A stretch of DNA of 54,204 nt from Nanobdellati archaeon (GTDB lineage: Archaea > B1Sed10-29 > JAGVWA01): positions 1-54,204 of the forward strand of contig JAGVWA010000014.1 of the NCBI GenBank assembly GCA_018304505.1, read 5' to 3'. The notes below the pieces were generated by a model. It was not told where the DNA came from, did no database searches, and worked only from the letters and a program-made list of their open reading frames with translations. Positions 14,243 through 43,691 of the stretch are shown here, piece after piece. The position numbers and the translations under genes are program-made. Each line of letters starts with the position of its first letter. Within the stretch, counting starts at the first letter, position 1.

Positions 14243-14497
14243 TTAGTCTTGGCCGTCTTGAAATTCGAGTGCTGATGCCACGAGGCTTAGCTGCTCGTTG
14301 TTTTCCGCCAGGGCTTGTTCAATCCTGCCCCTCGTATCTTTTGGCACGGGCCCCGTGTCGCCTATGTCGTGGAATTCATTAATTAAGTTAGTGCCTTCTG
14401 TGTCAAGCTCTTTCTGCAATGCCTGCAGTGCTGCTTGGTTTTGATGGTCCACGGCGCTATAAAATCTTTGATCAAATTGATCTTGGTTCATCCACAT
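14243..14497 (-). CDS. Small acidic helical orphan, Met-Trp N-terminus (MW family)
   Basis: MWMNQDQF start preceded by RBS-like AGGACGTGA; N-terminus resembles MWMTQDIF at 42775. Confidence 0.7.
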   Translation of the reverse strand: MWMNQDQFDQRFYSAVDHQNQAALQALQKELDTEGTNLINEFHDIGDTGPVPKDTRGRIEQALAENNEQLSLVASALEFQDGQD

Positions 14498-14547
14498 CTG
14501 CTTCACGTCCTTTGCGCGTTTTGATTTTTGGATCAAGCGGTTCTTGG

Positions 14548-15249
14548 TTACTTCTTCTTGGCGCCCTTTCCGCCTTTGCCACCCTTGGCGTTGGTTGCCG
14601 TTGCGGGTGCTGCTGCGGCTTCTTGGATCTCGGTAGTGCCCTTGACCTTCTTTTTCTTGCCTGCTTCTTCGCCTTCCTTTGTGGCTGCGCCTAATTGAGT
14701 AATGGCATCGATGTGCTGCTTGTTCTTTTTCATGACATCCTCCTTGCTGGGAATTTCAAGTTCAATTTTGCCTGAAAGCTTGTCATCAAACTTGCCTGTG
14801 TCAACCTCTTTCTGCATTTCCCGTGGGTCTTTTCCGTCTACGAGGATGCCCATTGGTATGCACGAGCCGATGACTTCCTTTAGGGCTGCCCTGTCGGACC
14901 GTCCATGGATAACGTTTCTTTTGGTTTTGAGGATCTTGATTAATTGATCAACTGCGATGTCGCCAGCCTTTACTAATGCTGCTTTTCCAGATCCTTTTTG
15001 GATAAAGATTGCGTTCTTGATCAGGGCACTTGTCGGCGGTGTACCAACTTCGATTGTGTAACTCTTTGCGGCAGTATCAACGATGACCTTTACCGGCACC
15101 CTGGTTCCGGCGAACTCTTTTGTTGCGGCGTTGATGTCTCCGACTACCTTGCCGATGTTCAGGCCCATTGGCGCCAGTGTCGGCCCTAGAGGTGGGCCCG
15201 CTGTGGCCTTGCCGCCTTCGATTAGCGCGTTTACGATTTTTTCCGCCAT
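14548..15249 (-). CDS. rpl11: 50S ribosomal protein L11 with C-terminal extension
   Basis: GGKATAGPPLGP, VPVKV, PPTSALI. Confidence 0.97.
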   Translation of the reverse strand: MAEKIVNALIEGGKATAGPPLGPTLAPMGLNIGKVVGDINAATKEFAGTRVPVKVIVDTAAKSYTIEVGTPPTSALIKNAIFIQKGSGKAALVKAGDIAVDQLIKILKTKRNVIHGRSDRAALKEVIGSCIPMGILVDGKDPREMQKEVDTGKFDDKLSGKIELEIPSKEDVMKKNKQHIDAITQLGAATKEGEEAGKKKKVKGTTEIQEAAAAPATATNAKGGKGGKGAKKK

Positions 15250-15250
15250 G

Positions 15251-15727
15251 TTACACTTTCGCCCCTGTTGTTTCTTTTGCTTCTTCCTTGTCCTGCTTTT
15301 CGATCAGGCGCACTTGCGATGCGTCTACTGTAATCGGAATCGGTACTGCTGATTCTATAATCTCCACGGTGATTTTTTCCTTGCCTTCATCTACGCGGAT
15401 GATGCGCGCTTTTTCTCCCTTGAAGGCCCCGCTTGTTAATTCCACGGTGTCCCCGCGGGCGAAGCCGCTGGTCATTGCCTTGACTTCGAAGAAGTGGTCA
15501 AGTTCTTGGATTTGTAACTGCCCTTTCACCAAGCCGCGTATGTTTGGGGCTTTGTAAGTAAGCTTCTTGATCTCGCCCTCGTTCTCGGCTTCTATTACCA
15601 GATAGCCTTTGAGCCCATCGATTAGCGCAATCGAGGGTATCGCGAGCCCTTCTAATTTTGTCTTGTTTTCGAGTATCTCTGCTACGACTTTCTCTTGGCC
15701 GATTACTGTTCTTACGCCAAAAATCAT
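15251..15727 (-). CDS. spt5: Transcription elongation factor Spt5 (NusG)
   Basis: GQEKVVA, LKGY, KOW motif GDTVELTSGAFKGE. Confidence 0.96.
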   Translation of the reverse strand: MIFGVRTVIGQEKVVAEILENKTKLEGLAIPSIALIDGLKGYLVIEAENEGEIKKLTYKAPNIRGLVKGQLQIQELDHFFEVKAMTSGFARGDTVELTSGAFKGEKARIIRVDEGKEKITVEIIESAVPIPITVDASQVRLIEKQDKEEAKETTGAKV

Positions 15728-15813
15728 TTTCTCACGGTGTTTTTTAAGTGCTTAAAACTAGCCTTGCCTATTTTTTGGGGTATTTGGTTTAAAAGCTTTC
15801 TCTTTCTGTTGTT

Positions 15814-16005
15814 TTACACGAACCCAAACACGTAGCCGAGGCTCATGATTATATAGCCGATTGCTCCAAGGACCACCATTCCGAGGCCTGTTACCTTGGC
15901 CACGGCGGCGAATTCCTGTTTTTTTGGTTTTTTAGTCAGCCGCATGACGCGTATGGCCCTCGTTACAAAGCTGCCTGTTCGCTCTTGCAGGTTTTTCAGG
16001 TCCAT
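15814..16005 (-). CDS. secE: Protein translocase SecE/Sec61-gamma
   Basis: RVMRLTKKPKKQEF plus TM helix; ftsZ-secE-spt5 context. Confidence 0.93.
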   Translation of the reverse strand: MDLKNLQERTGSFVTRAIRVMRLTKKPKKQEFAAVAKVTGLGMVVLGAIGYIIMSLGYVFGFV

Positions 16006-16040
16006 TTTTTAGTCATCTCTTTTGCTGTTTCGTTGCTGGG

Positions 16041-17267
16041 CTACACATAATCGAGGTCTAGGTCTGCGTCTGTGCCGCGAGAGCTGCCTTCTTCGAGGTA
16101 GGGTATCCGGCCCCCAGATATCAGCACCATTGCTTGTATCGTATTCCTAGGTAAGTCTTCGTTGACCATGGCGCCCCATATGATGTGCGATTCATGGTGT
16201 ATCTTTGACGCCACGGCCTCGCAGATGATTTCTGCTTCCCTGAGGCTCATGTCGCCCCCGCCGATGACGTTTATCAGGGCCCTGTTTGAATCTGACACGT
16301 CAACATCAAGCAGCGGCGAGTTGAGTGCCTCTTCGACAGCCTCCAATGCCCGGGCCTCGCTTGAGGTCGTGTCGCCTGAACTTTCGCCGAGGCCGATCAT
16401 GGCAGAGCCGCCGTCGGTAAGGATTGTCCTGACGTCTGCGAAGTCAAGGTTGACTAAGCCTGGGCGTGTGATCATTTCTGTGATGCCTTTTACCGCATTC
16501 GTCAGCACCTCGTCGGCTACCTTGAAGGCCGCATTTAACGGCAATTCAGGTACGATTTCGAGTAGCTTATCATTTGGGATGACGATTGTTGTGTCCGTGT
16601 GTTTCCTCAGTTTCTGCAGGCCGCTGAGGGCGTTCTGCATCCTCTTTTTGCCTTCAACAGAAAATGGCAATGTGACGATGGCCACTGTCAGGGCTCCCAT
16701 GTCCTTTGCCACGTTTCCAATAACTGGGGCACAGCCTGTTCCCGTGCCGCCGCCAAGGCCACATGTTATGAATACAAGGTTTGCGTCGTCCAGAACCTCA
16801 CGGATGTCGTCCTGGTTTTCCTTTGCAGCTTCCTCTCCAACTTGCGGGTTTGATCCTGCGCCTAGTCCGCGCGTGAGCTTTTTTCCAATAAGGACTTTCT
16901 TGTCTGCTGGAATCATGAGAAGGTGTTGAGCATCGGTGTTTACGGCAATGAACTCAGCGCCGTGAATGCCGATTTCGCTCATCCTGAGCATGGTGTTGTT
17001 TCCGGAGCCCCCTGCTCCAATGACTTTTATGCGGGCAGAGCTTTTGTCAAGCGTGTCTTGCAATTCTTTGTCTGTCATGGCGCCTTTCTTGGCCTTTGCT
17101 GCAGCTGCTGGCGCTTTTTTCTGTTCGTCCGCCGCCTGCCGCGCGAACTTTTTCAGTTCCATTTCTTCAGCATCAATGATGCTTGACGTTTTTCCTGTGA
17201 TCTTCGTTGAAGTGGTTTTTTTCATTTTGCCTTTTCGGCCCGCTGCTCGTTTTATTATCGATTTCAA
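16041..17267 (-). CDS. ftsZ: Cell division protein FtsZ
   Basis: GAGGSGNN, GGGTGTG, NLDFAD; TTG start with GGGGG RBS, start uncertain. Confidence 0.97.
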   Translation of the reverse strand: MKSIIKRAAGRKGKMKKTTSTKITGKTSSIIDAEEMELKKFARQAADEQKKAPAAAAKAKKGAMTDKELQDTLDKSSARIKVIGAGGSGNNTMLRMSEIGIHGAEFIAVNTDAQHLLMIPADKKVLIGKKLTRGLGAGSNPQVGEEAAKENQDDIREVLDDANLVFITCGLGGGTGTGCAPVIGNVAKDMGALTVAIVTLPFSVEGKKRMQNALSGLQKLRKHTDTTIVIPNDKLLEIVPELPLNAAFKVADEVLTNAVKGITEMITRPGLVNLDFADVRTILTDGGSAMIGLGESSGDTTSSEARALEAVEEALNSPLLDVDVSDSNRALINVIGGGDMSLREAEIICEAVASKIHHESHIIWGAMVNEDLPRNTIQAMVLISGGRIPYLEEGSSRGTDADLDLDYV

Positions 17268-17413
17268 GTAGAAGCCCCCATATCGTTTTTAGTTTTAGTC
17301 ATTGTAGTCATGAACAGAAAGACTGATAGTAGTTCTGTACTAATTAGTATATAAGGATTTGTTTTGCAGGCGGGTAGGTTTTTTAAGCCCTTGCGTTAAT
17401 ATTAAAACCACAT

Positions 17414-17495
17414 GCTGGTGTGGCAGAGCGGTTAATGCGCTGGTCTCGAAAACCAGTTCCGAAAGGAATCGCAGGTTCAAATCCTGCCGCCAGCG
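17414..17495 (+). tRNA. tRNA-Ser(CGA)
   Basis: Acceptor GCTGGTG/CGCCAGC, anticodon arm CTGGT-CTCGAAA-ACCAG, long variable arm, TTCAAAT loop. Confidence 0.95.
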
Positions 17496-17498
17496 TAA

Positions 17499-17738
17499 GA
17501 GGGGCTTCGCCCCTTCTATCCCTGAAGCACTGCATTCGGCTTCGCCGAAGCAGAGCGGTTCTTTGGTTTTGAAAAACAGGGGTTTTCAAATTTGATAAAC
17601 GCGTAGCGTTCTGTCAAATGCAGCTTTCTTTTTAAGAAAGGTGCAAGCACCACCCTCAGCGTCAAAGGGCTTCGCCTACAACAAAACATGATTTTGTTGA
17701 GGCCTCAAAGAACTACGTTCTTTGCAGACCCTCTTGAC
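17499..17738 (+). repeat. Modular palindromic (REP/MITE-like) repeat cluster, copy A
   Basis: Stacked hairpins; shares TTTGAAAAAC..GTTTTCAAATTTGAyAAACGCGTAGCGTTCTGTCAA and CCCCTTCTATCCCTGAAGCACTG with copy B. Confidence 0.85.
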
Positions 17739-17839
17739 ACCTGCGGCGCATCAAGCATAGCTTGATGCACCTGTTTTTGGTGCGTCGAGGTGCCACAGTA
17801 AGGCTTGGCGCCATGGTTTTCTTTTCAACAACGCGTTTG

Positions 17840-18481
17840 TTAGATGTATTGCGCGAAGGCTATTGAACTTATTATTGAAACCAGAACAATGCCGAGCAGG
17901 TATGCAGCGATTGATCGCAGTGTTGTGATTTTGTGGGCCTGGCGTAAGCCGATGATGAACAATGCAATGCCCCAAACCTCAGCCAGCAGCACGAGCAGCA
18001 GTATTGGGGCTGTTACTGGATTTGCGAGAACTCCCGTTATCAGTTGCTCACTCGTCATATCCCCAAGGCCCTGGCTTATGAATACTTGTATGGGTTCAGG
18101 TGTTGTGTAGAAACCGATGTGCGAAAGCGCTGTGCTGATGGTGTCCGGGACAATTGCAAACCCGGCCATGGTAACGAATTGCTTTAGTGTCGCCGTGCCT
18201 TTTAGGGCAACCGCCATGTAGTGCATGACCAGGATTGTCAGTATGAGCATGGACAGCCCGAACACGGCGAGGGTGCCCCATGGGATTCCTGGGGCCGCAG
18301 CAAGTGGATTTACAACCGATGCAATAAAAGAAATTCCGAGAATTGCGATGCTTACTGGCAGGTATCTATCAGTGTTCTTTGCCGCGCGGTCGAAAAAACG
18401 CGATGGGGCGAACACAAGGTCCAGCAACTTGTAATCCTCATCGGTCTTGTGTTTTGCAGTTTTTGTTTTTCTCTGGGCCAT
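17840..18481 (-). CDS. Yip1-family membrane protein
   Basis: VFAPSRFF motif and five TM helices. Confidence 0.8.
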   Translation of the reverse strand: MAQRKTKTAKHKTDEDYKLLDLVFAPSRFFDRAAKNTDRYLPVSIAILGISFIASVVNPLAAAPGIPWGTLAVFGLSMLILTILVMHYMAVALKGTATLKQFVTMAGFAIVPDTISTALSHIGFYTTPEPIQVFISQGLGDMTSEQLITGVLANPVTAPILLLVLLAEVWGIALFIIGLRQAHKITTLRSIAAYLLGIVLVSIISSIAFAQYI

Positions 18482-18563
18482 GTGTACATCAACCGCGCAG
18501 GGTATTTATTCCTTTGTCAGTGGAAGCAACAATCCATATATATGGTGTGTGCGTTTGTAGCCC

Positions 18564-19085
18564 ATGCGCCAACTTATTGTTCTGGTCATCATGGGGTCCG
18601 TACTAATATTTCTAGCTTTGATTATCCCGATTCAAGAAACTGCTGCGCCGCAATCAGGCAGTGGAAGCAGCCCACAGGGCGGAGGTTTTGATGCAATTGT
18701 TTCGTTTTCTAATGGTGCTGTGGTGCATGTCGAGATCGCGAACACTACGGGGGCCCGGCAAGTTGGTTTGATGAACCACCAGGGCTTGGGAGAAAAGGAA
18801 GGGATGCTGCTCGATTTCATGTCTATTGGAAGCCACGGAATTTGGATGATGAACATGAAGTTCTCCATTGACGCTATATGGGTTAACACTGTAGGAATCG
18901 TGGTGCACGTTGAGGAAAATCTGCAGCCGTGCAGCAGCAATCCAGGGAATGTTTGCCCCGCGTATTATTCTAAGGCATCAAATGTTCGTTATGTGCTTGA
19001 GGTGCCGGCAGGTTTCGCTGCGCGCAGAGGTATTGCCATTGGGGACGATGTTGAAATTGCCACAATTCAAAAACAGGTAGGTTAA
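18564..19085 (+). CDS. DUF192 family protein
   Basis: VEIANT..R..GLM, GMLLDF, IWMMNMKFSIDAIW, YVLEVPAG. Confidence 0.92.
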   Translation: MRQLIVLVIMGSVLIFLALIIPIQETAAPQSGSGSSPQGGGFDAIVSFSNGAVVHVEIANTTGARQVGLMNHQGLGEKEGMLLDFMSIGSHGIWMMNMKFSIDAIWVNTVGIVVHVEENLQPCSSNPGNVCPAYYSKASNVRYVLEVPAGFAARRGIAIGDDVEIATIQKQVG

Positions 19086-20235: not shown

Positions 20236-20237
20236 TA

Positions 20238-22922: not shown

Positions 22923-23216
22923 TTACATATCGTTGTTCAAGTCCCGCAAGACCACGCCAAGGGCATCTTTAGTGTCCTTATCAGGGCACGTACTGAGGAA
23001 GCTGTTGAGCATGCTCCGTGCCCTGTTCCTGATAAGTGCCCGCGATACGGGCAGTTCATCGTCGGCAATTTTCAGCAGCCTGTGCCCCTCAATAAGCGGT
23101 TTAAGATTTGAAAAATCGTCAAGCGAAAGCCCTCTTCTCCTGCGTGATTGAAGTTTCGTCAGCAGGTCGTGCGTTATTTCTTCAACCTTAATCGTCTCGA
23201 ATGAGTCTTGCCACAT
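22923..23216 (-). CDS. MW-family orphan (MWQDSF...)
   Basis: ATG 1 nt after the upstream stop; GGGGG RBS. Confidence 0.75.
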   Translation of the reverse strand: MWQDSFETIKVEEITHDLLTKLQSRRRRGLSLDDFSNLKPLIEGHRLLKIADDELPVSRALIRNRARSMLNSFLSTCPDKDTKDALGVVLRDLNNDM

Positions 23217-23217: not shown

Positions 23218-23592
23218 TTAAAGCCCCCAGTCCGCGAGATCTCTCTGCGGTGGATTATCATATCTCTCGATTTTGGTTTGCCCGTCTGGCGTGACGGCAA
23301 CAGGGGCCATGGTTTCATCGGTTAGTATGTCGTTTATGGCCGCGTTTGCAAGTTTCCTGACAGCAGCTGGTTTTCTGCCAATTTCCTGAAAGCGTTGTAT
23401 GTGGTTCACGGCATTCTGCAGGGCGCGCTGTTTTGCACCCTCTTCTAGATCGCTTGTGTTTTTCAGAATCGATAGCGCATTTTGCAGGTGCATAACTCGT
23501 GTAGACGCATAAGTATCATATCTTTTCTCTGGTTTTTGTTGGTCCGCAATTAACTCATTAACCTTTGGTATTGCGTCTTTTGCTGCCCACAT
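23218..23592 (-). CDS. MW-family orphan (MWAAKDA...)
   Basis: GGAG RBS; MWxAxDA motif shared with two neighbours; alternative ATG at 23598. Confidence 0.72.
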   Translation of the reverse strand: MWAAKDAIPKVNELIADQQKPEKRYDTYASTRVMHLQNALSILKNTSDLEEGAKQRALQNAVNHIQRFQEIGRKPAAVRKLANAAINDILTDETMAPVAVTPDGQTKIERYDNPPQRDLADWGL

Positions 23593-23628: not shown

Positions 23629-23862
23629 TCATGACAGCCACACCTGGTCCTGTTGAATTTGGGTTATCGCGGCGTCAGCAGATTCGGTCAGTTCAGGGCA
23701 TCTTGATTTCAGCCTTTCCAGTTGGCAAAACGCGTCTCTCAACTGGCCTTTTGGCATGCCGATGCCCCCTTCAAAGTTCCGTAGGTGTTTAATGGCTGTC
23801 CTTTTTTCTGGGCACGTTGGCAGCTGTTCAATAATCTCTACTGCATCTAATGCGTTCCACAT
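23629..23862 (-). CDS. MW-family orphan (MWNALDA...)
   Basis: GGAG RBS; start 4 nt after the upstream stop. Confidence 0.75.
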   Translation of the reverse strand: MWNALDAVEIIEQLPTCPEKRTAIKHLRNFEGGIGMPKGQLRDAFCQLERLKSRCPELTESADAAITQIQQDQVWLS

Positions 23863-23866: not shown

Positions 23867-24175
23867 CTAGTCTCCAAGTGATGACCTGTCGAATGTCGAG
23901 AATCCAGGTTCTGTGTCGATGTACCTCATTGCGTCAAATGCTATCCTCGCCGCGTGTTCATTGTCGCAGTGCCTCCTGAATATTGCCAGGCCTTTTTCGG
24001 CTTGCACAAGCAGCTGCCAGCGTTTCTTGCCAGAAAGCGCGACTGCCTGTTGCAGGCTCTGATGAGCGGTTGTCAGCGCTTCCCTGTCTTCTGGTCCCCG
24101 CACAGAGGTGTTTTTTCCGTAGCCTGCGTCAATCAGCGTCGTGGTTTGTGCTAGTGCATCATTTGCGTTCCACAT
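23867..24175 (-). CDS. MW-family orphan (MWNANDA...)
   Basis: GGGGGAG RBS; TATA box TTTAAATA upstream. Confidence 0.78.
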   Translation of the reverse strand: MWNANDALAQTTTLIDAGYGKNTSVRGPEDREALTTAHQSLQQAVALSGKKRWQLLVQAEKGLAIFRRHCDNEHAARIAFDAMRYIDTEPGFSTFDRSSLGD

Positions 24176-24237: not shown

Positions 24238-25545
24238 ATGACCATATTTCATGAAAAGCAGGACCAGATCATCAACGTACAGAGCGGCCAGTGCAACTGG
24301 AAAGATTGTGTTGGGTGTGGCTGGGGCAAGCTGAAGTTCCCGGTGTCAGTGGAAAACCTGAAGCAGCAAATTCTGCGCGTGAAGCTCGATCCTGAAAAGA
24401 TACTAAAGATTTTCGAATCTGGGAGTTTCTTTGACGATGACCAGATCCCGCGCGAATTCAGGCAATGGTTCGCGCAGCACTGCAAAGAGCAGGGCATCCG
24501 TCATTTGGTTCTGGAAAGCCGCCCGGAATTCATTACAGAAGAGAACCTAAACGACTTCAGAGGCGTAGGAATCGACATGCATATCGCCATCGGCCTCGAG
24601 AGCACTGACAACGCGATCCTCAAGAAATACAATAAGGGCTTCACGTTCGAGGACTACAAAGCATCGGTAGACGTCATCCGAAAAGTCGGCTTCAAGGTAC
24701 GAACGTTTATACTCGTCAACATGTATCACAGCCAGCAACTGGATTTGGAAAAATCGATAGAAGAGACCCTGCCATTGACTGACTCCTTAGTCATTATTAA
24801 CATGATGCCGCATGCCTCAACGAGCCTCTTCTCGTTATGGGTCAACGGCCTGTGGAAACCGTTTGACAGGAAGCAATTCTACAGCGCGGTTGACAAGTGG
24901 AAGGACAACCCGAAAGCAGAAATTGATTTTGATAACTTCGTATTCGCGCCAAAATTCGTTGAGCGGGAACGCGTAATGATTAAGGGGGCCACGGTTGATA
25001 ACTTGAAGCATAAGCATTTCGAGGTGTGGCAGGACTTCATACAGAGGATTTATGAAAGGCCAGAGCGCAAGGACATCGCGTTGTTCTTGCCGTGTAGTTT
25101 CCAAAAGCCGTACGAGCGGTCACAGACGCACACAGCAATTGACAAGGTCCTACAGTCATCGGACCTGTTTCCCAGGATTCACAAGCTCGTTATCTCAACA
25201 CCGGGAGTCGTACCTTTTGAGTTCAACAGCAAGTACCCGTTCAACAGCTACGACTGGCCGGAGTGGGAAGAAACGTCAGACGTCAGGCAAGAATATGTAA
25301 ATGTAAACGCGGAGCGCATCAGGAAATACCTTGAAAACCACGAATACAAAATGATTGTTTGCTATCTCAAGCCAACTTCGGACACGTATAAGGCCCTGGA
25401 ACGAGCGTGCCAAGACCTGGGCTTGAAGTTCACGAACCTGCTTTCAGACGAGGTCTTCGATTTGGTGAGCGACTTGAAGAATCCAGTAGCGCGCCCAGAG
25501 GCGCTTGCGAATTTGCGAAGAAACCTAGCAGGCGTCACCTGCTGA
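24238..25545 (+). CDS. Radical SAM (RaSEA-like) domain fused to an ArcS/DUF5591-like domain; probable archaeosine synthesis
   Basis: CNWKDCVGC, SGSFFD, LESRPEFI, IAIGLES, NKGFT; then LFLPCS.QKPY..S.TH, PGVVPFE, YDW. Confidence 0.8.
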   Translation: MTIFHEKQDQIINVQSGQCNWKDCVGCGWGKLKFPVSVENLKQQILRVKLDPEKILKIFESGSFFDDDQIPREFRQWFAQHCKEQGIRHLVLESRPEFITEENLNDFRGVGIDMHIAIGLESTDNAILKKYNKGFTFEDYKASVDVIRKVGFKVRTFILVNMYHSQQLDLEKSIEETLPLTDSLVIINMMPHASTSLFSLWVNGLWKPFDRKQFYSAVDKWKDNPKAEIDFDNFVFAPKFVERERVMIKGATVDNLKHKHFEVWQDFIQRIYERPERKDIALFLPCSFQKPYERSQTHTAIDKVLQSSDLFPRIHKLVISTPGVVPFEFNSKYPFNSYDWPEWEETSDVRQEYVNVNAERIRKYLENHEYKMIVCYLKPTSDTYKALERACQDLGLKFTNLLSDEVFDLVSDLKNPVARPEALANLRRNLAGVTC

Positions 25546-31590: not shown

Positions 31591-31871
31591 GCTTATCCCC
31601 GTATGAATTAACATAAAGCGACTTTATAAGCCTTTGTTAGATAATCCAGATGATTTTCTGTTGTTTCGTGTTTATAAAATTAATGTGCACGGGTCTGGTT
31701 TTAACTAGTTTAAACCAGTTGGGTTACAAACTAACCAATAACCGCCCTTCAATTCATTGGTAGGGGTATGTCAGTACAGAACCGTATTTAAGTTTTTCTG
31801 TTCTGTGGCAGACCAGGTTTGGAAAAGCAATTTGCAAGAGAATAATTTAATTGGCTTTAGGTAATTGTGAG

Positions 31872-31945
31872 CGCCCGAGACGGGATTTGAACCTGTGACC
31901 TGTCGGTTAACAGCCGACCGCTCCGCCGAACTAAGCTACTCGGGC
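31872..31945 (-). tRNA. tRNA-Asn(GTT)
   Basis: Acceptor GCCCGAG/CTCGGGC; anticodon arm GTCGG-CTGTTAA-CCGAC. Confidence 0.95.
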
Positions 31946-32027
31946 ATTGGATTTAGATTGTAGAATAGGTTATATAAAAAAGGTTTATATGGGTCCAACG
32001 AGTTCTGGGCCCATTAAAGTTGGTTAA

Positions 32028-32420
32028 TTAATTTGGCGAGTTGTTCTTCAAATAGAAGTACACAGTTCGCAGTGGCATGTTCACGTTTTCTGAGATTTGT
32101 TTTACTGGAACGCCTGTTTTGCGCTGGTCAAAAATAGCTTTCACTGTCGCGTCTTCGTATTTCACTGGCCTGCCGACCTTGAAGTCGCCGGATGTGAACT
32201 TTATGCTCTTTTCCTGCAGTTGCTGGAACACCTTTTTGCTCGTCTGTGCATATAGGCTTGGGGGGCATGACAAGTTTTCTAGAGTTGGGCATTGTGCCAG
32301 CGTAGCTTGTACAATGTCAAGTGTTGGTCTTAGGTTAACGTAAACGTGCTTGTGGTCTCCCTTTATTTTCTTTATGTTTTTAATCAAAGTTTTTTTGTCT
32401 TTTCCTCTGATAACGTGCAT
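32028..32420 (-). CDS. DUF1699-like protein with C-terminal HTH
   Basis: HVYVNLRPT..I......CP.L....PPSLY; GRP.KY then resolvase-type HTH; AGGTGA RBS. Confidence 0.7.
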   Translation of the reverse strand: MHVIRGKDKKTLIKNIKKIKGDHKHVYVNLRPTLDIVQATLAQCPTLENLSCPPSLYAQTSKKVFQQLQEKSIKFTSGDFKVGRPVKYEDATVKAIFDQRKTGVPVKQISENVNMPLRTVYFYLKNNSPN

Positions 32421-33734: not shown

Positions 33735-35408
33735 TTATTCTAGTTCGTGCGCCACCTCATCGGGTATTTCGTCTGCTTCTTCCTCAACCTCTGGTTCAGG
33801 GGCCTCTTCAAGTTCTGCACTGTACTTGGCCTCAATTATCTGTCGCAGTTGCGATTCAAGCCTTTCGGCGCTCTCTCCGGTTATCTTTGCAAGTGAGTCC
33901 GCTACTGGTTTTATGTACATCTCGAGCGTCTTTTTCTTCTGTTCCTGCTCGTACATCTTCTTCTTGCCGGCCACGTATCTGCCGACCTTTCTGCCGACTT
34001 CCATCAGCGCAAGCCGGATTTCCTTTAGCACTTCATCTTCGCTGGCGATGCTTTGCTTTCCAGCGCCAGTGTACGGCACATGGATGCTCGTGAAGTTGAC
34101 CATTATTGTCAGCGGATTTTCAGGTCTGATTTCATAGCGTTTCCAGTCAACGCTTTGTATTGCCTTTGTGATTGCGCAGCCTCCCGAGTCGAACAATAAC
34201 GGCGTCCTGTTTGCAAATCGCATGATTTCGATGTTGTCCTTTTTGGCTTCCCCGAGCTGTTCAAGTTCAGCTTCGCCTACCTTTCCTGATTTTCCCCCGT
34301 AGGCAATGGCAACTTCTATTTGGAATGGGACCCCTCCGCGGAAGATGCCGGCGGGCCTTGTGAGGATGTCCTTGAATTCGGGCGTCAGGATGTTCTCTAG
34401 GGCTTTTTCTAGGTTGTTTTGACCAATGGGAATCAAAACATCGGTCGGTGGGGCGATGAAGGAAATTTTTTCAATGGCTTGGCAAACCTGTTCTGCTTCT
34501 TCCCACCTCAAGTCTTGCGGGCGCTTGTTCATGTCGAACGCAACCCTGTCTTGGATTTCCTTGGTCTTTGCATTACTCATCCTGGTGAATTCTGACTCAA
34601 GGAATGAAGCCACGCTCCGTGCCTTGGTTTTTGTTGCATAGGCCATTAAGTCGCTTGTCTCAAGGCCCTTTGGGTGGGGCTTTGCCTCCTTTGGCTGTTT
34701 TGGGATCTGCCCAGATGCCCGGTCATAGACCGTTGTAATGCTGTCAGGGTCCATATACGTCAGCTTGGCGTGTGGGTTTACGAGCATTGTTCTTCTGATG
34801 TATTCATCAGGGCCTTGTTCTGATTTTTGGTACAGCACGTGTTTCAGTTCTGTCTCTACCCTTGTTCCGCGCATCCTGCCTGAATATATTTTCTCGTCGC
34901 TTATGGCGGCCGAGTTTGTCTTTAAATCAATGGCCACGCGCATTTCGTGTACCTCATTGTTGCCCTGCCCGGTGATGATTTTTGTGGGCTTGCCTGTTGT
35001 CTCCTGCGCGAACATGACTGCGCCAGCAGCCCCGATGCCTTGTTGTCCGCGGGCCTGCTTAAAAACATGAAACTTGGTTCCGGCCAACATGGTGGCGAAT
35101 ACCTTGCCAACAAGTTTTTTCGGTATACCCGGACCATTGTCTTCTACAATTAGCTTGTAGTGTTCATGGCCGAGCTTGTCCAGCTTTACGTAAATTTCCG
35201 GGAGGATGCCTGCTTCTTCGCATGCATCAAGTGCGTTGGTAACGTATTCGTGTATAACCGTCGTTAGGGATACGATCTTTCCGCTGTAACCGAGCATTTG
35301 CCTGTTTTTCTTGAAGAACTCTGCTACGGAGTGCTCTTTGAAATCTTTGTGGATGTTGATTGTTTTTTCTGTGGGTGCTGATTGTGCCTCTGCCACTGAT
35401 AAAGTCAC
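33735..35408 (-). CDS. top6B: DNA topoisomerase VI subunit B
   Basis: SVAEFF, HEYVTNALDA, EDNGPGI, RGQQGIG, RFANRTPL. Confidence 0.97.
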   Translation of the reverse strand: MTLSVAEAQSAPTEKTINIHKDFKEHSVAEFFKKNRQMLGYSGKIVSLTTVIHEYVTNALDACEEAGILPEIYVKLDKLGHEHYKLIVEDNGPGIPKKLVGKVFATMLAGTKFHVFKQARGQQGIGAAGAVMFAQETTGKPTKIITGQGNNEVHEMRVAIDLKTNSAAISDEKIYSGRMRGTRVETELKHVLYQKSEQGPDEYIRRTMLVNPHAKLTYMDPDSITTVYDRASGQIPKQPKEAKPHPKGLETSDLMAYATKTKARSVASFLESEFTRMSNAKTKEIQDRVAFDMNKRPQDLRWEEAEQVCQAIEKISFIAPPTDVLIPIGQNNLEKALENILTPEFKDILTRPAGIFRGGVPFQIEVAIAYGGKSGKVGEAELEQLGEAKKDNIEIMRFANRTPLLFDSGGCAITKAIQSVDWKRYEIRPENPLTIMVNFTSIHVPYTGAGKQSIASEDEVLKEIRLALMEVGRKVGRYVAGKKKMYEQEQKKKTLEMYIKPVADSLAKITGESAERLESQLRQIIEAKYSAELEEAPEPEVEEEADEIPDEVAHELE

Positions 35409-35956
35409 CTTCTCATTTTCTGTCGCTTGTATTTCTCTACGAACTTGATAACGTTCGGAATGGGTGTGCCTTCGATGATTTTAGAAACAGCTTCCTTTGC
35501 TGCGTTCACATCTTCTATTTCTCCGAGGATAGTTACTAGATTGTTGTTTATAATTATTTCCGTGTCTGTCAACTTCGACAAGTACGCCCTGACTTTGCCT
35601 TCGGTTCCAATGAGGCGTGATTTTACCCGGCTTAACTCTTTGTCAGAATCGCCAACCGCCTCGGCTAAATTGACTTGTCCTGTGTAGTATTGTGGATTTT
35701 CTAGTTTATAAGCTTTTTGCGGTGCGATTCCGCCGGCTATCGCCTTTATCACTTCACGCGCCTGGATGCCTTTCAGTGCATCGTTTTCAATGTTCCTGAT
35801 TAGGTTGACCTCTCCGGTTTCTGAATTGATTTCCAACTTCACCGTGAAGCGCCTTTCGATCTCGTTTTTTGTCTTGCCCTCTTTTCCGATAAGTACGGCG
35901 ATTCTGTCCCGCGGGACCTTGAGCATGTCAACGATCTTTTCTTCCATGTAGTTCAT
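35405..35956 (-). CDS. KH-domain rRNA-processing protein (Dim2/Pno1-like)
   Basis: RIAVLIGKEG and RLIGTEG KH motifs; rio1/top6 context. Confidence 0.92.
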   Translation of the reverse strand: MNYMEEKIVDMLKVPRDRIAVLIGKEGKTKNEIERRFTVKLEINSETGEVNLIRNIENDALKGIQAREVIKAIAGGIAPQKAYKLENPQYYTGQVNLAEAVGDSDKELSRVKSRLIGTEGKVRAYLSKLTDTEIIINNNLVTILGEIEDVNAAKEAVSKIIEGTPIPNVIKFVEKYKRQKMRR

Positions 35957-37427: not shown

Positions 37428-37718
37428 ATGTGGAACATTGTAACAGTTAATCCCGGCGAGGACCCAGAACGGTACTCGGAGCTTCAGGCAGAGATCGAGA
37501 GACGGAAGGGGGTACGGTTAGGGGATAATTCCATTGAGTATCCAGTCCCTGGAAGCGTTATAATAAAGATGAGTGACGGGCGGATCAAGGAGCGCATCGA
37601 TGGGGATGGTGGGGATCACTTCAGTGGAAGACTGTGGACTTACCAATTGATGATCAACAGGAACGAGCCGAATGCGGATCAATTCAGGGAAGCGCTAAGG
37701 TTGGCCAAAGGAGAATAA
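37428..37718 (+). CDS. MW-family orphan (MWNIVT...)
   Basis: 96-aa ORF whose first start codon gives Met-Trp. Confidence 0.7.
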   Translation: MWNIVTVNPGEDPERYSELQAEIERRKGVRLGDNSIEYPVPGSVIIKMSDGRIKERIDGDGGDHFSGRLWTYQLMINRNEPNADQFREALRLAKGE

Positions 37719-37895: not shown

Positions 37896-38198
37896 ATGTG
37901 GAGTGTTGGTTGCGGTCAGGAAAATACGGCTTATCTTATAGACAAAGATGCAAATGGGAAACCAATAACAACATTCAGGAAACGGCTTTTTGATGATGAT
38001 ATGAAGCGCATTCCATGGTACAAGGGCGCTTGGGAACAGCGTGATGGTGGCCCTGATTTTAATGATGGGGGCAAAGAGATAAGCGAGGGATACACGCCAG
38101 TGCGGGGATTTTTAAAAAAGAGGGAACTTGAAAGTGACAGAAGGATACACAGAGACATAGCGTATCTTCAGCATGTTGAATGTGAATTTGGGTTATAA
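37896..38198 (+). CDS. MW-family orphan (MWSVGC...), probably leaderless
   Basis: BRE/TATA (AAAAGGTTTATATA) about 24 nt upstream of ATGTGG. Confidence 0.72.
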   Translation: MWSVGCGQENTAYLIDKDANGKPITTFRKRLFDDDMKRIPWYKGAWEQRDGGPDFNDGGKEISEGYTPVRGFLKKRELESDRRIHRDIAYLQHVECEFGL

Positions 38199-38902: not shown

Positions 38903-39178
38903 TCATCTGTATTGTCTGAGGCACATGAGACATTGTAACTTAGCTGACCACTAGCTTTTTTTGATTTTCAACAGAACTCGTTTGGTTGTGAAATCCGCGT
39001 GTTGGAGACCAGGTGTGGGATACCTGGTCTCATTGCGTTTGAGGTTCATTTCGTAGTTTATTTTTTCAGCCATTTTCCCTTTCGGGCAATATAGTTACTC
39101 AGGTCAGGGTATATAAAGATTCCTAGTTTTTGTCAAGACCAGGGGGTAGTTACATTGCTGGCTTTTGAATCGGGAAAA

Positions 39179-39961
39179 TTAAGTGTTCATAATTTTAGAT
39201 TGTCTTAGTATTTTCTTAGGGTCCAGGGCCATTATTTCTTTCCAAGTTACATTGGGGCTTCTTTTCATGAACTCCTTTATTATTTGGTATCCAATTGAGT
39301 AGCCTGTCCACAAGGGATATTCACTGCTTCCAAAGAACACCTGCTGGAATAGCTTGTGACTTTTGGAGTTCAATTTGCTTTTTAATTTCTTTAGCTGCGC
39401 CTTGCTTTCATTTCTTGATAATGCGCTGGCCCACGGCGCGGTCTTTCCGCCAACAACGTTCTCGCGGTAGTGTTCTGCCATGCCCTCATAGATGATTGCA
39501 TCTAGAATAGAGTTGTTGGCTATTGGGTATTTTGTTATTGAATGACAATACTCATGTGCTATCGTTTCCCGTAGGCTGGTTTTCCACCCCGCTGTTCCGG
39601 TGATGAATATGTTTATTGTGTTGGTTCATGGGCAGTATCCGTTAACCCCATTCATTTTGTTTTTCACAAATTCAGAAAAGCAGGGGAACACGTTAACGTA
39701 TGTTACTGTGTGTGGTTTGCTGGTGACGTTTTCGCTTTGGCATTTTTTTATGGTATGGATAACGATTTTTTTTATTTCTGTTTGGTCTAATGGGATGGGC
39801 TTTACTTTTCCGTCCGGGTCAATCTTTTCTTCTAAATGCATCTTAAGCGCTTTTTTGGTTTTCCAGCCAGCATACCCGTTACCCGATTTTTGTACTTTTT
39901 TGAGGATCTCTTCCAGCGCGCGTTTGCCCTGTGACCGCGTGTCGATTATTTGTATTTTCAT
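39179..39961 (-). pseudogene. DUF2268-like Zn-dependent peptidase with in-frame TGA at 39626-39628
   Basis: Reads GVNGYCP*TNTINIFI...TIAHEYCH...IIYEGMAEH...PLWTGYSIGY in one frame. Confidence 0.82.
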
Positions 39962-40142
39962 TTTTGGTGCGCCCCTGAAGGTGCAGGGAGAAATTCAGAA
40001 CGCCCAAATTTGCATATGGGCGTTTGCTGCCCCGTTGCGTAGCAACGGTGCGGATCTGCTTTTCTACAGCAAATTTGCTGAGAAATCGAAAAAGCTTTGC
40101 TTTTTCGTATTTTCCCCAAGCTTTTGCCAGTGGGCAAAAGGC

Positions 40143-40422
40143 TGGTGCAGGGAGAGGGAGTTTCCCAAGGAAGCCCATCTGCCCCTAAAAACCATGGCAC
40201 TTCGCCGCAAGGCGAAGGTGGCATTTCAGGACTTGACAGAACGCTTGCGCGTTTGTCAAGCCCGAAAAAACCCTAGTGGGTTTTTTCAGGGGTCAAGGGG
40301 ATGAAATCCCTTGTTTTGAACCCTCGTAGGCACTGAGCCAATGGATGTCGCATGCGCGGCGAGCCCATTTCTGGGTTCGCCTGATCTTGAGTCCATCCCG
40401 TTTTCCGCTCCGGCATCCCTGC
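40143..40422 (-). tRNA. tRNA-Leu(CAA) with two introns: 39 nt at 37/38 (40347-40385) and 155 nt at 59/60 (40160-40314); CCA encoded
   Basis: Acceptor GCAGGGA/TCCCTGC-A-CCA; ATGGA-CTCAAG|A-TCCAT; long variable arm; GAGGG-TTCAAA|T-CCCTC; BHB-like junctions at both introns. Confidence 0.87.
40232..40290 (-). repeat. Palindromic repeat modules (copy C) inside the tRNA-Leu T-loop intron
   Basis: Minus strand TGAAAAAACCC..GGGTTTTTTC + TTGACAAACGCGCAAGCGTTCTGTCAAG matches copies A and B. Confidence 0.8.
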
Positions 40423-40530
40423 GTTACTCAGATTGTGCTTTTGTGCCTATAAATACGTTTACATCCAGTTAGGGCAAAGCGTAAGTTTAATAAGCAGTAA
40501 ATATGCAAATATTTAGTGTAGGGGATAATA

Positions 40531-40890
40531 ATGTGGTTTACAACTAATGGTTATGCAACGGGGAAAAGGTTGAGGGGTTATATGGGCACAGCACATGGCT
40601 CAAATAACCATGCGGAAATAATGACGGCTGCCGAGGCGTTCTCTAACGAGATAGGTTATGCTGAAACAGATGAAATCCTTGACGACGATGATTGGTTCAT
40701 GATTAATCAGTTCATAGACCACTATGATGCCTGTGTCAAGCCGCGTGTAGCGGAAATTATGCAGGGGGTTGTAGAAGAGCCATTTATGTGTAGATTGGAA
40801 ACAGGGCCAAGCGGATCACAAGTTTCAACTACCCCTGTGTCAACTCAAAAGCTGAGTGATCTACGTACCACCCGTTGGGGTACGGATTAG
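40531..40890 (+). CDS. MW-family orphan (MWFTTN...)
   Basis: GGGGAT RBS; 119 aa; acidic. Confidence 0.75.
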   Translation: MWFTTNGYATGKRLRGYMGTAHGSNNHAEIMTAAEAFSNEIGYAETDEILDDDDWFMINQFIDHYDACVKPRVAEIMQGVVEEPFMCRLETGPSGSQVSTTPVSTQKLSDLRTTRWGTD

Positions 40891-40923
40891 GTAAACGAGG
40901 ATTAATTGACGGTGGTGACTCAT

Positions 40924-41145
40924 GTGTGGACAGAACGAGAAAACGATGAAGACCCTGACCGCATCAGCAAACTAAGCAAACCGGCACACGAAAAGTTCTG
41001 TGCTTGCCGTGAATGTACGACAGCCTTGCTCAATAGTTGCCCGCCGGGCAACGCAAGGCCGAGAATGGTTGAAATGTTTGGGTATCAACGGCTCCCGTCA
41101 AAAGGCGGACTGCTAAGGCACCCGGTAACAGGCGAGGTCCTGTAA
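40924..41145 (+). CDS. MW-family orphan (GTG start, MWTERE...) with H..FCACREC....C cluster
   Basis: GGTGGTGA RBS 5 nt upstream of GTG-TGG. Confidence 0.68.
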   Translation: MWTERENDEDPDRISKLSKPAHEKFCACRECTTALLNSCPPGNARPRMVEMFGYQRLPSKGGLLRHPVTGEVL

Positions 41146-41196
41146 CTCCTGCAATGGGTTTTTCCTGCAGGGGGTTTTCTGTTTCGGATTTTTTGC

Positions 41197-41304
41197 TCAG
41201 GATGCTAACACAGGAATGCTTTTCGAGGCCAGCAAGGCCATGAATAAAATAAAGCCTATGCAAACCCCGACAAGGAAATGAATCATCTGTTCTGCTTTTG
41301 TCAT
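41197..41304 (-). CDS. Possible 35-aa single-TM peptide
   Basis: MTKAEQMIHFLVGVCIGFILFMALLASKSIPVLAS directly after the hydrolase; GTGAG RBS. Confidence 0.45.
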   Translation of the reverse strand: MTKAEQMIHFLVGVCIGFILFMALLASKSIPVLAS

Positions 41305-41326
41305 TCTAACTCACTTCAATTCTGCG

Positions 41327-42151
41327 TCACGTTTTTAGCCAATCAATTATTTCCTGCTTTACGCCGGGCTGTGTTGTAAGCAAGTTTGTTCCGTGCCCGC
41401 CGCTCTCGAAAATTCGGATTTTGTTGTCCTGGTTCTTCATCGCATTGTCGATGGTCTGCACAGTTGATGCAGAGTATTCGTCATCAAAGGCCGCAATGAG
41501 GAACGCCGCGCTTTTGTATTCCGGCGCCACGGGGCCGATGTTGACCCCACGGTAATCAATTCCGGGAGACAGCAGCACGATCTTTTTTGTACCCTGGCTA
41601 ATGGCACCGTAAATCAGCGCGAGGTTCGCCCCGATTGACGCACCGACCAGCGCATCAGGTTGCATGCCCTGATTTTCAAGGTACTGCACTGCGGCCTCAA
41701 TGTCCCTTACCGAGTTCTGGAAGTCCGGTGGCCCCATAATTTGCCAGCTCCTGATCTGCATTGTCGATTGGCCGTGCCCGCGCATATCGATACTGAGGGC
41801 ATTGAAGCCCTGCTGCTGCAGCTGCCGGGCAAAATCCTCGTACGCCTTCCTGTCGGAAGAGAGCATGTGCACGAGCACCACAGACCTGTTTGTGTCAGAA
41901 TTTGAATACAGGGTTCCGAAAATCGCGACCCCGTCAGTGGTTACAAAGTTCACGACCTGCTCGCCGAGTTTTCTGTTCTGCTTAGTGTAGTTAATCTCCC
42001 CTGATGCAGCGGCACCATGGTCTTGTACGTCTTGGTCTTGTACGTCCTGCGACGCCGGGGTTTGTATGCACGCGCTCAGAAAAACCATTGCAAGCAGTGC
42101 AAGCAGCGACACAACCACGGGAAAACCAACGTTAAGTTTCACGTGTCTCAC
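41327..42151 (-). CDS. Alpha/beta hydrolase, probable lipoprotein
   Basis: Lipobox-like LSAC, DMRGHGQS, GASIG nucleophile elbow, GGHG. Confidence 0.9.
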   Translation of the reverse strand: MRHVKLNVGFPVVVSLLALLAMVFLSACIQTPASQDVQDQDVQDHGAAASGEINYTKQNRKLGEQVVNFVTTDGVAIFGTLYSNSDTNRSVVLVHMLSSDRKAYEDFARQLQQQGFNALSIDMRGHGQSTMQIRSWQIMGPPDFQNSVRDIEAAVQYLENQGMQPDALVGASIGANLALIYGAISQGTKKIVLLSPGIDYRGVNIGPVAPEYKSAAFLIAAFDDEYSASTVQTIDNAMKNQDNKIRIFESGGHGTNLLTTQPGVKQEIIDWLKT

Positions 42152-42670
42152 TTATTTCACCTGGAATGAGTTAAGGATCTGGTTTGCCCCGACCTCGTGC
42201 TTGCTGAAAGTGCTTAGTGGCGCGCTGAATTCGTGAACAAATGCGGTCCGCTCTTTTTTGAACACGGTTAGAGCATAGCGAAATGCGCCGAGCGTGTATT
42301 TGATCTGGTGCCCCTCGATTTGATTTACTCGTGTGGGGTTCGCGCTTATCAGAATGAAGTCCCGTTCCTGTTTAAGCTGCGCCCTTACGTCGTCGATGTA
42401 CTCCTGCGCAGTGCCGTCGAATTTAACCAGTGTCAATGTGTAAAAGGTGCCGCTGGTGTTTTTCGGGCCCAACACAAGCTCAGTGCCTGGCTTGAATCTC
42501 TCTGTGCTCTCTTGCCAGTCCTCAGGTATACTGATTTCATATCTATCTGTTGAGAAAGTCAAACGCTGCTCCGGAAAAATCAGCGGGCTGATTTGGGTAT
42601 ACAGCAATGCAAGTACAATGATTATCCCGATCAGGGTGTAGTCCTCAAAGTCCATTCCAAGGAATGCCAT
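42152..42670 (-). CDS. Membrane-anchored PsbP/DcrB-like protein
   Basis: N-terminal TM, YEISIPEDW, C-terminal ILNSFQV. Confidence 0.7.
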   Translation of the reverse strand: MAFLGMDFEDYTLIGIIIVLALLYTQISPLIFPEQRLTFSTDRYEISIPEDWQESTERFKPGTELVLGPKNTSGTFYTLTLVKFDGTAQEYIDDVRAQLKQERDFILISANPTRVNQIEGHQIKYTLGAFRYALTVFKKERTAFVHEFSAPLSTFSKHEVGANQILNSFQVK

Positions 42671-42774
42671 GGGTAAATATCGAGTCAGCGGTATTTAAAA
42701 TGCGATGTGCAGACACCAGTACGTTTTTATACCAGACGCAATTAATAAACAACACACTAGGCGTGATGAAATAG

Positions 42775-43062
42775 ATGTGGATGACACAGGACATTTTCAG
42801 AAAAGAGGCAGACGAGATCAGGGACTGCATTAAGGGTGGCGCCATTGATGACGCCGCTAGCCGCCTTGCGAAAATAGGCGGGGAGATTTCTGAAGAATTG
42901 CGTGTTGCGCAAAACGCCATGCGGTTAAGTGACAGCCTAATTGTTGGCCCACAGATAAAATCAAGGTACGTCCTTCTGAGTGGGCAGGCCAGGGAGCTAG
43001 ATGACATCAGGGCGCAGCTTAGCTCGTTGAGTGGCAACGAATCAGGCAATAACGGGCAATGA
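42775..43062 (+). CDS. MW-family orphan (MWMTQD...), helical bundle
   Basis: TATA TTTTTATA and GGCGTGA RBS; paralogue of 43422. Confidence 0.8.
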   Translation: MWMTQDIFRKEADEIRDCIKGGAIDDAASRLAKIGGEISEELRVAQNAMRLSDSLIVGPQIKSRYVLLSGQARELDDIRAQLSSLSGNESGNNGQ

Positions 43063-43127
43063 GGAGAAGCTTTTTATTTTAGTGCGAGTAAAGTATTAAA
43101 GAAAATAGAAGTTCTAAGTGATGCGTA

Positions 43128-43385
43128 GTGTGGAGCGTAAGTTCAGACGTTGATGAAACAGTAAGGGGCGCGCGTTTGTTAATCGAGAATAGCATGCCCC
43201 ATCCTGCAAGTGTCTTGGTGGCCCATGCAGAAGGGCAACTAGAGCGTGCCATGGCAGAAACACCCCACGAGGAGGACTTCTGGGGGGCCCCAATAATAAC
43301 ACAGCGCACACTTATGCGCCAAGCTGAATTGCGGCAAAGCACTAAAGCGCTTGATGCACTAAAAGCAGAACTAGAAAGAATTTGA
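43128..43385 (+). CDS. MW-family orphan (GTG start, MWSVSS...)
   Basis: GTGA RBS; aligns with both neighbours. Confidence 0.75.
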   Translation: MWSVSSDVDETVRGARLLIENSMPHPASVLVAHAEGQLERAMAETPHEEDFWGAPIITQRTLMRQAELRQSTKALDALKAELERI

Positions 43386-43421
43386 AGCATAAAAGATACA
43401 CAAAAACGGAGGTAGGGACAC

Positions 43422-43691
43422 ATGTGGGTAGACACATACATTTTTGAGGAACAAGAAAGAGATATACGGGGGCTTATAGACGAGGGGCATGTTGATGAAG
43501 CAAATAGCATTTTCACAGGGCTGGCCGAACAAGTTGGCGAAGATCGAGTAAGGCTGGACCGCGATTTTTTGGTAACTCCTGTATCAGTGGCTGGATCTGG
43601 ACTTGGTTTGCGAGACAGCAGCGACCAGCTCCAAGGACAGGAAGCAAGGATAGCTGAGATCAGAGCGGAGCTCGCGTTGTTCGGCTTGTAA
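43422..43691 (+). CDS. MW-family orphan (MWVDTY...)
   Basis: GGAGGT RBS; paralogue of 42775. Confidence 0.8.
   Translation: MWVDTYIFEEQERDIRGLIDEGHVDEANSIFTGLAEQVGEDRVRLDRDFLVTPVSVAGSGLGLRDSSDQLQGQEARIAEIRAELALFGL

Follow-up and report, generated by a model that had tools for sequence, protein, structure and literature searches.

We analysed a stretch of 54,204 nucleotides (nt) from a Nanobdellati archaeon (GenBank contig JAGVWA010000014.1), here called the window, in which an initial annotation had noticed twelve small orphan proteins that all begin with Met-Trp (MW). These proteins belong to a large, native, lineage-specific and fast-diverging class of small proteins, and the Met-Trp start is the one feature that all its members share. 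The pattern is real and far larger than first described, with about 92 genes spread over the whole genome, and it is also more lineage-restricted. The window is contig C8 of a 21-contig genome of 917,116 bases with a GC content of about 48%. The genome is 93% complete and belongs to a DPANN-type archaeon.

Tryptophan at the second position

We counted tryptophan at position 2 over the called genes of the genome. TGG follows the first ATG in 81 of 1021 genes (binomial p 6e-50 against the proteome-wide Trp frequency of 0.86%). When the first start codon of any kind was taken instead, TGG followed in 59 of 1031 genes (p 3e-29 against the same frequency). After internal Met residues, Trp was found in 26 of 4079 cases (0.64%). 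Trp is therefore enriched at position 2 throughout the genome; had it not been, the initial annotation would have counted this against its proposal.

The class comprises 92 small MW proteins, which is about 9% of the genes, or roughly one in eleven. Their lengths run from 51 to 153 amino acids (aa) with a median of 92, figures that were computed on an earlier set of 96 proteins, before two were dropped and some starts were re-picked. Their genes cover 28,371 bases, about 3% of the DNA. Among proteins of up to 165 aa, Trp occurs 95 times at position 2, as against 1-7 times at each of positions 3-16. Among proteins longer than 165 aa, only 3 of 561 carry it at position 2. The excess of Trp is strictly positional and confined to the small-protein class, and the MW start is a property of small orphans, as had been proposed.

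We then compared this genome with others. The phylum set held 31 genomes including this one, and none of them was of the same family. A Shine-Dalgarno sequence followed by ATGTGG occurs 21 times here (once in the reversed control), compared with 0-11 times in 40 other genomes (30 of the same phylum, 10 of other lineages of the domain). A tighter form of this pattern occurs 12 times here and 0-4 times in the 30 other phylum genomes. The raised counts in four genomes (G020, G021, G037 and G038) were set aside as background made up of long housekeeping or membrane proteins or of hits outside any open reading frame (ORF). By a crude ORF measure, MW starts make up 3.95% of ORFs here, compared with 0.75% in one set of related loci (596 kb) and 0.81% in another (541 kb). 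We saw no MW signature in the 30 other phylum genomes or in these approximately 1.1 Mb of related loci.

These counts bear on whether the pattern arose by chance or from the calling of starts. Seven of the twelve starts in the window had been re-assigned, and the public calls are longer for some of the genes (P0002, P0005), which would fit an artefact. However, in 59 genes MW is the first start of any kind, the p values lie between 3e-29 and 6e-50, and the frequency of MW among ORFs stands at 3.95% against 0.75-0.81% in the related loci. We regard chance or an artefact as hardly credible. All twelve Met-Trp starts of the window were found where they had been reported, with the same N-termini and with lengths of 73-124 aa. 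Five of them (37428, 40531, 42775, 43128 and 43422) have no in-frame ATG, GTG or TTG between the MW and the next stop upstream, which leaves MW as their sole possible start, in agreement with the earlier description. Of the seven re-assigned starts, six are favoured by a Shine-Dalgarno sequence, the position of a TATA element or the abutment of stop and start, and the start at 23592 is ambiguous. The possibility that the true starts lie upstream was checked, and the re-assigned starts hold up.

MW starts are preceded by a purine-rich Shine-Dalgarno sequence at about -12 to -5, and often by a TATA element some 40-55 nt upstream. Shine-Dalgarno words were present in 47% of 94 MW candidates and in 27% of 923 other genes, and TATA words in 46% and 27%, respectively. 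The codon usage is near that of long genes, with similar codon choices and a GC content at third codon positions of 0.50 compared with 0.56. In all ten paralogue pairs (10/10) the nonsynonymous divergence (pN) was lower than the synonymous (pS). By these signs, the MW ORFs look like real native genes. A shared cis-regulatory motif was rejected, as k-mer enrichment in the upstream regions gave generic TATA, TGCA and Shine-Dalgarno words only.

The same data speak to whether RTGTGG could be a nucleic-acid element, that is, a binding site or an RNA signal for a regulator, a small RNA or the ribosome. ATG and GTG starts alike carry TGTGG, and Trp has one codon, both of which are compatible with such an element. 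Yet there are no conserved flanking bases beyond the generic words just named, and the hexamer always stands in frame with a long ORF. Nor is it over-represented elsewhere in the genome, where the 390 copies of ATGTGG on both strands are within the range of similar hexamers. This makes a nucleic-acid element highly improbable.

As a class, the MW proteins are acidic, with a net negative charge in 77% of them. Compared with the proteome, they contain more Arg, Asp and Glu and less Lys, Ile and Tyr. A crude hydropathy measure (Kyte-Doolittle, 19-residue window above 1.6) gave a transmembrane-like segment in 1 of 96 MW proteins and in none of the twelve from the window (0/12). The latter agrees with their earlier description as soluble proteins that lack a signal peptide. 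On this crude measure we also rejected the idea of Sec- or Tat-secreted or membrane proteins. No C-terminal motif was found among the 92 proteins in a tabulation covering the first position. The last residue is Glu or Asp in 27 of 92, and the termini are acidic. Behind the Trp, positions 3 to 6 show preferences, measured against the overall composition of these proteins, for N/D/S, then T/N/I/V, then Q/N/K/T and then E/T/D, and these fade by position 11. TGG at codon 2 runs counter to the A-rich early-codon preference. MW genes are not enriched near contig ends, as 16 of 92 lie within 3 kb of one compared with 137 of 923 other genes (p 0.54).

A few larger proteins also begin with MW. Among them are a 370-aa AAA-type ATPase (AAA_22, E-value (E) 1e-6; G000:C13:17136-18248, minus strand) and a 287-aa orphan (G000:C19:32915-33778, plus strand) whose gene and an adjoining MW trio are transcribed in divergent directions. 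These two could be linked to the MW class or simply belong to the background. When the large neighbours of MW arrays were searched against Pfam, 0/6 gave an informative match, save for one AAA ATPase that itself starts with MW.

Divergence, tandem arrays and insertions

In an alignment of all 92 proteins, M1 and W2 were the sole invariant columns. BLASTP at E < 1e-3 divided 96 proteins into 87 clusters, and an iterative hidden Markov model (HMM) search with residues 1-2 removed linked just 7 MW-MW pairs. Searches of all 92 against Pfam (best E 0.0066) and PADLOC (best E 0.0081) gave no significant match. The twelve window proteins likewise matched nothing in Pfam (best E 0.022) or PHROGs (best E 0.022). 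We searched 5.8 billion proteins with two single members, MWSVG and the 42775 protein, and with one paralogue pair, and only the queries themselves were returned. An exhaustive HMMER search with a three-member profile against 1.84 billion representatives returned the three members and two repeat proteins, a pentapeptide-repeat giant and a helical repeat, which we regard as compositional artefacts. The earlier observation that several members look unrelated downstream of the MW was thus borne out by BLAST, by the HMM without residues 1-2, and by Pfam, PHROGs and PADLOC.

We rejected a virus- or plasmid-borne gene set. The family of the 42775 protein has no relative among IMG/VR viral contigs, none of the twelve window proteins matches PHROGs, the codon usage is near that of core genes, and MW genes are sited between core genes such as those for L11 and L1.

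Structure predictions were made for a few members. The AlphaFold2 single-sequence model of the 42775 protein is a confident three-helix bundle (predicted local distance difference test (pLDDT) 85.5). A Foldseek search of this model against the PDB gave no match at E <= 0.001, the best being generic three-helix MIT-like bundles at E 0.16. A member from contig C3 was modelled as three strands and a helix with low confidence (pLDDT 46.5). The ESM Atlas models of two other members, including MWNIV (37428), are of low confidence, with a pLDDT of about 0.5, and no usable feature matches for MW proteins were found in the Atlas. Taken together, the models suggest fold diversity among MW proteins. The initial annotation had stated that a collapse of all members into one ordinary fold would speak against its proposal. 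No such collapse was seen at the sequence level, whereas in structure the members may still share one fold.

A purely structural role for Trp2 has to be weighed at this point. The class would then descend from one or a few ancestors, and Trp2 would be a core, capping or oligomer-interface residue kept for stability only. The N-terminus is ordered in the confident three-helix model, and by eye several window members look like similar helical proteins. The arrays described below, which arise by tandem duplication and quickly lose similarity, also make common descent plausible. On the other hand, the lengths differ threefold (51-153 aa), the HMM links are limited to 7 pairs, and the second modelled member has a different, low-confidence fold. 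Residue 2 would also be an odd site for the most conserved core residue while the other core positions drifted. We consider the structural explanation unlikely, though a live alternative.

MW genes are clustered. We counted 33 adjacent MW-MW pairs where 8.2 were expected, and the runs over the genome comprise 40 singles, 6 doubles, 12 triples and 1 quadruple. Several of the triples form tight operons in which 0-5 nt separate the genes. Local alignment gave z > 3 for 27% of within-array pairs compared with 1-3% of pairs between arrays. Since similarity is elevated within arrays and low between them, the arrays arise by local tandem duplication with quick decay. Although triples outnumber doubles, we rejected homologous three-gene cassettes, because between trios the resemblance of proteins is no greater when their positions correspond than when they differ (Mann-Whitney p 0.38). 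Recognisable MW paralogues share 28-43% identity with saturated synonymous sites, and all of them keep the MW. In most paralogue pairs, conservation is higher over the first ten residues than over the remainder.

MW arrays are insertions into conserved gene order. The gap between a KsgA-like gene and the gene of a 435-aa core protein (24238-25542) measures 0-52 nt in 8 of 15 related loci; here it is 1320 nt and holds four MW genes. In other relatives, unrelated non-MW insertions of 0.8-8.9 kb occupy this junction (L001, L002, L005, L051 and L060), which is an insertion hot spot across the group. The MWMNQ gene sits between the genes for L11 (14548-15249) and L1 (13473-14147). Measured from the end of the L11 match, the spacing of L11 and L1 is 116-334 nt in 7 of 9 relatives with both genes, compared with 575 nt here. 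Lying inside the L11-L1 cluster and lacking its own TATA, the MWMNQ gene probably shares a transcript with that cluster.

DNA nearly identical to the region was present in groundwater and soil metagenome runs from several studies, and one of the MW genes is present in some populations and absent from others. Contigs of run X2 and of runs X3/X4 join position 40464 to 40921 with 69 other letters between them, in place of the segment that holds the MWFTT gene. The depth in X2 is 10 for the joined form and 2.6 for the contig covering the MWFTT gene. X3 and X4 give identical figures and look like one data set filed twice. The counts of population variants were taken from contigs only and are rough. 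The trio at 42775-43691 contains 9 of the 24 variable places found in 20 kb. Its coding changes are 4 nonsynonymous and 2 synonymous, and none of the variable places falls in the MW codons. MW gene turnover is fast.

Readings of the Met-Trp start

That the MW has stayed while all else drifted requires selection on codon 2 or residue 2, regardless of whether descent or convergence underlies the sharing. A bulky second residue keeps Met aminopeptidase from cleaving off the initiator Met, so the mature N-terminus should expose Met1-Trp2. Our preferred reading is that this N-terminus is a selected, protein-level recognition mark, to which we give a probability of about 0.4. The set grows by local tandem duplication, and most of its members have diverged until their similarity is undetectable. 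The exposed and possibly acetylated Met1-Trp2 would give them a common fate: they could be passed to a shared partner for sorting, exported from the cell (e.g. into a host cell) or degraded in a controlled way. We favour the protein level because the constraint is exactly N-terminal, belongs to one protein class and acts counter to the nucleotide preferences of gene starts.

The initial annotation had gone further and likened MW to a portable tag. The part of this that stands is a strong shared MW on proteins that look unrelated. Independent acquisition of the MW is unproven, and genes within arrays are tandem duplicates. Inheritance with purifying selection on the MW explains the sharing at least as well. 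The three functions that the initial annotation had put forward, a docking or export signal, a Met-hydrophobic degron and a translational element, are candidates. The signal is strong and unexplained, and its reading as a tag is a plausible proposal.

Selection could instead act on the codon. With UGG as the first elongation codon, translation of the whole set would be tied to charged tRNA-Trp. In an organism dependent on imported Trp, stalling at codon 2 would leave a ribosome obstructing the start site, and the set would be made only at times of plentiful Trp, for example from a host. Trp-codon-dependent expression is a known idea for obligate symbionts. TrpA and IGPS, both present in 14 of 14 control genomes, were not found in this 93%-complete genome, so the organism is apparently unable to make Trp. 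The genome has one tRNA-Trp, with anticodon CCA, and position 2 is the earliest possible stall site. However, Trp is not enriched elsewhere in the MW proteins (1.08 times the proteome), and codons 3-5 would work too, yet show no excess. Moreover, no precedent for a gate at position 2 appeared in the titles and abstract openings covered by our literature search, and a gate leaves unexplained why only small orphans carry the UGG. We hold a codon-level gate to be unlikely, though it too is a live alternative.

Several points weigh against the recognition mark. A dipeptide offers very little for a partner to recognise. We identified no receptor, transporter, protease or modifying enzyme for the MW set. 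ClpS (PF02617) reads bulky N-terminal residues in the bacterial type of N-degron pathway; it was detected in 5 of 14 control genomes but not in this one (93% complete), and membership in that pathway was rejected on this ground. In the model of the 42775 protein the first ten residues are ordered (pLDDT 85), and Trp2 may pack into the fold. The preferences at positions 3-6 are partly the general A-rich early-codon bias of ordinary genes. As Trp has a single codon, selection at the protein level and at the codon level are inseparable from sequence alone, and with no close relatives selection on codon 2 is not measurable across species. Everything is based on one assembled genome, albeit with near-identical DNA in the runs of several studies, and no RNA runs were found among the sequencing runs that match the region.

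We compared the class with known systems, which we describe from general knowledge. The closest ones are analogies that each share one or two traits with the MW class and fail on defining features. The RXLR proteins of oomycetes and PEXEL proteins of Plasmodium are likewise large, lineage-specific, clustered sets of fast-evolving small proteins with a short N-terminal motif. Their motifs have 4-5 residues and lie behind a cleaved Sec signal peptide, whereas here the motif is the first two residues, without a hydrophobic signal and in an archaeon. In the Met-hydrophobic N-degrons and NatC substrates of eukaryotes (Met-Leu/Ile/Phe/Trp), a retained Met and a bulky residue are read for docking or degradation. 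Met-Trp is mentioned in a paper on NatC. We know of no archaeal reader of Met-hydrophobic N-termini. Proteasome subunits are present in this genome, as in all archaea, and ClpS, as noted, was not found in it.

Bacterial type III secretion substrates carry an N-terminal signal without a hydrophobic core on many unrelated small proteins. That signal is a compositional bias over about 20 residues, in contrast to an invariant dipeptide, and to our knowledge archaea have no type III secretion machine. The WXG100/Esx proteins of type VII secretion resemble the MW set in being helical, about 100 aa long and encoded in clusters, with a conserved Trp, which in their case lies in a central WXG turn and not at residue 2. 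We rejected membership in that family, given 0/92 Pfam matches and a confident model with a three-helix bundle and Trp at residue 2. In trp leader peptides, and through Trp-codon effects in obligate intracellular bacteria, UGG couples expression to the Trp supply. The apparent inability of the present organism to make Trp would fit this kind of control, but the described examples rely on several UGG codons, in tandem or otherwise, located in leaders or throughout genes, as opposed to a single UGG at codon 2 of about 90 genes. The titles and abstract openings that we searched gave no account of proteins sharing a Met-Trp start in archaea or elsewhere. We rate the MW pattern as outside the known kinds, its function being one that we infer.

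The genomes of DPANN archaea are tiny, and the organisms presumably live on other cells. Their action on these partners is poorly understood, and few of their lineage-specific genes carry an annotation. In the present 0.9-Mb genome, about one gene in eleven is identifiable by the first two residues of its product and by nothing else, which offers a simple handle on otherwise intractable genomic dark matter. As a signal for sorting or turnover, Met-Trp would represent a novel type of protein address. A stronger form of the recognition mark, which we find possible though rather doubtful, is that Met-Trp is a minimal address tag that marks about 9% of the genes of a DPANN archaeon for a common machinery, possibly for delivery to a host. 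With a tag for host delivery, an effector set and its targeting signal would be recognisable in archaeal symbionts for the first time. With a Trp-codon gate, an auxotrophic symbiont would be linking a regulon to its nutrient supply by a novel route. The least ambitious reading, in which a hyper-divergent family has kept Trp2 alone, would be unusual as well.

The window genes and their surroundings

The twelve MW genes of the window and the segment that varies between populations are listed in Table 1.

Table 1. MW genes and variable segment of the window (positions of the window; negative numbers are relative to the start codon).
Feature	Length (aa)	Position	Strand	Remarks
MW gene MWMNQ	84	14243..14497	-	First ATG of ORF; AGGA at -14; no own TATA
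MW gene MWQDS	97	22923..23216	-	Last of four-gene array; start 1 nt past the stop of the preceding MW gene
MW gene MWAAK	124	23218..23592	-	Start ambiguous: ATG two codons upstream (MCMW)
MW gene MWNAL	77	23629..23862	-	First ATG; GGAG at -13; sole upstream start (TTG) overlaps the Shine-Dalgarno sequence
MW gene MWNAN	102	23867..24175	-	First of four-gene array; GGGGGAG at -10..-5
MW gene MWNIV	96	37428..37718	+	No upstream in-frame start; TATA at -55
MW gene MWSVG	100	37896..38198	+	TATA at -31, 3' of the alternative TTG
Segment replaced by 69 other letters in other populations		40465..40920		456 nt; carries the MWFTT gene and its upstream region
MW gene MWFTT	119	40531..40890	+	No upstream in-frame start; present/absent between populations
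MW gene MWTER	73	40924..41145	+	GTG start; GGTGGTGA at -13..-6; upstream GTG/TTG inside GGTGGTGA
MW gene MWMTQ	95	42775..43062	+	No upstream start; TATA at -49; predicted three-helix bundle
MW gene MWSVS	85	43128..43385	+	GTG start, the first start of the ORF
MW gene MWVDT	89	43422..43691	+	GGAGGT at -14; no upstream start

For the genes at 14497, 23862, 24175 and 40924, a Shine-Dalgarno sequence of the GGAG/GGTGA type or AGGA lies 7-14 nt 5' of the start, and the alternative starts fall inside or beside it. The 24175 gene also has a TATA element (TTTAAAT) at -40, and its upstream GTG lies within the Shine-Dalgarno sequence. The upstream ATGs of the 23216 gene fall within the preceding MW gene. 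For the 23592 gene, GGAG at -14 is compatible with either start. A simple codon-usage gene caller found 65 genes in the window, 11 of them MW, and missed the 73-aa ORF at 40924.

Some of the window proteins are related to each other or to proteins elsewhere in the genome. The MWMNQ protein is 38% identical to the 42775 protein, and MWVDT is a paralogue of the latter at 30% identity. MWSVG has a paralogue of 30% identity on contig C10 that likewise starts with MW. In the public annotation, the MWSVG gene has a longer TTG start, and longer TTG starts are given to some MW genes in public records P0002 (124 aa) and P0005 (97 aa). Such upstream starts conceal the Met-Trp signature in databases, a warning that automatic gene calls can hide this kind of pattern.

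By eye, the core genes in the window include those for FtsZ, the ribosomal proteins L1 and L11, a Spt5/NusG-like protein and a SecE-like protein. The closest relatives of the 435-aa core protein are 47-51% identical and come from metagenome-assembled genomes labelled Micrarchaeota, Iainarchaeum, Aenigmatarchaeota or 'archaeon'; its top match among JGI metagenomes has 50% identity.

Elsewhere in the genome, two candidates, C9_60190 and C15_12415, were dropped from the MW set. They belong to non-MW families, and their MW is internal. The family of C9_60190 looks PIN/VapC-like by eye. A ten-member family of about 95-170 aa has the look of PIN-domain (VapC-type) toxins by eye, with members on contigs C1, C3, C5, C9, C11, C14, C15 and C19 (e.g. 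G000:C19:57837-58232 and C19:60270-60683). Several of them adjoin small antitoxin-like genes, and 5 of the 10 lie within 2 kb of MW genes. The sole tRNA-Trp gene (CCA; G000:C3:106320-106457) contains a 64-nt intron and adjoins an MW gene (C3:106003-106158), probably by coincidence.

Within the window, 39600-40400 is a variable region crowded with short overlapping ORFs. In some contigs, 7 nt are inserted behind 40072 and 1 nt behind 40404. A 100-aa ORF at 39179-39481 (minus strand) matches only the last 95 positions of the DUF2268 profile (E 6e-18), a family that we take to be a predicted Zn-protease. This match suggests a truncated gene, next to the variable region, of which the C-terminal part is left. 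In three bins (31696-32362, 35031-35697 and 39700-40366), the summed contig depth is 2-3 times that of the neighbours in all runs, with many loose ends. Probably, these bins hold conserved sequence to which contigs of other organisms align as well.

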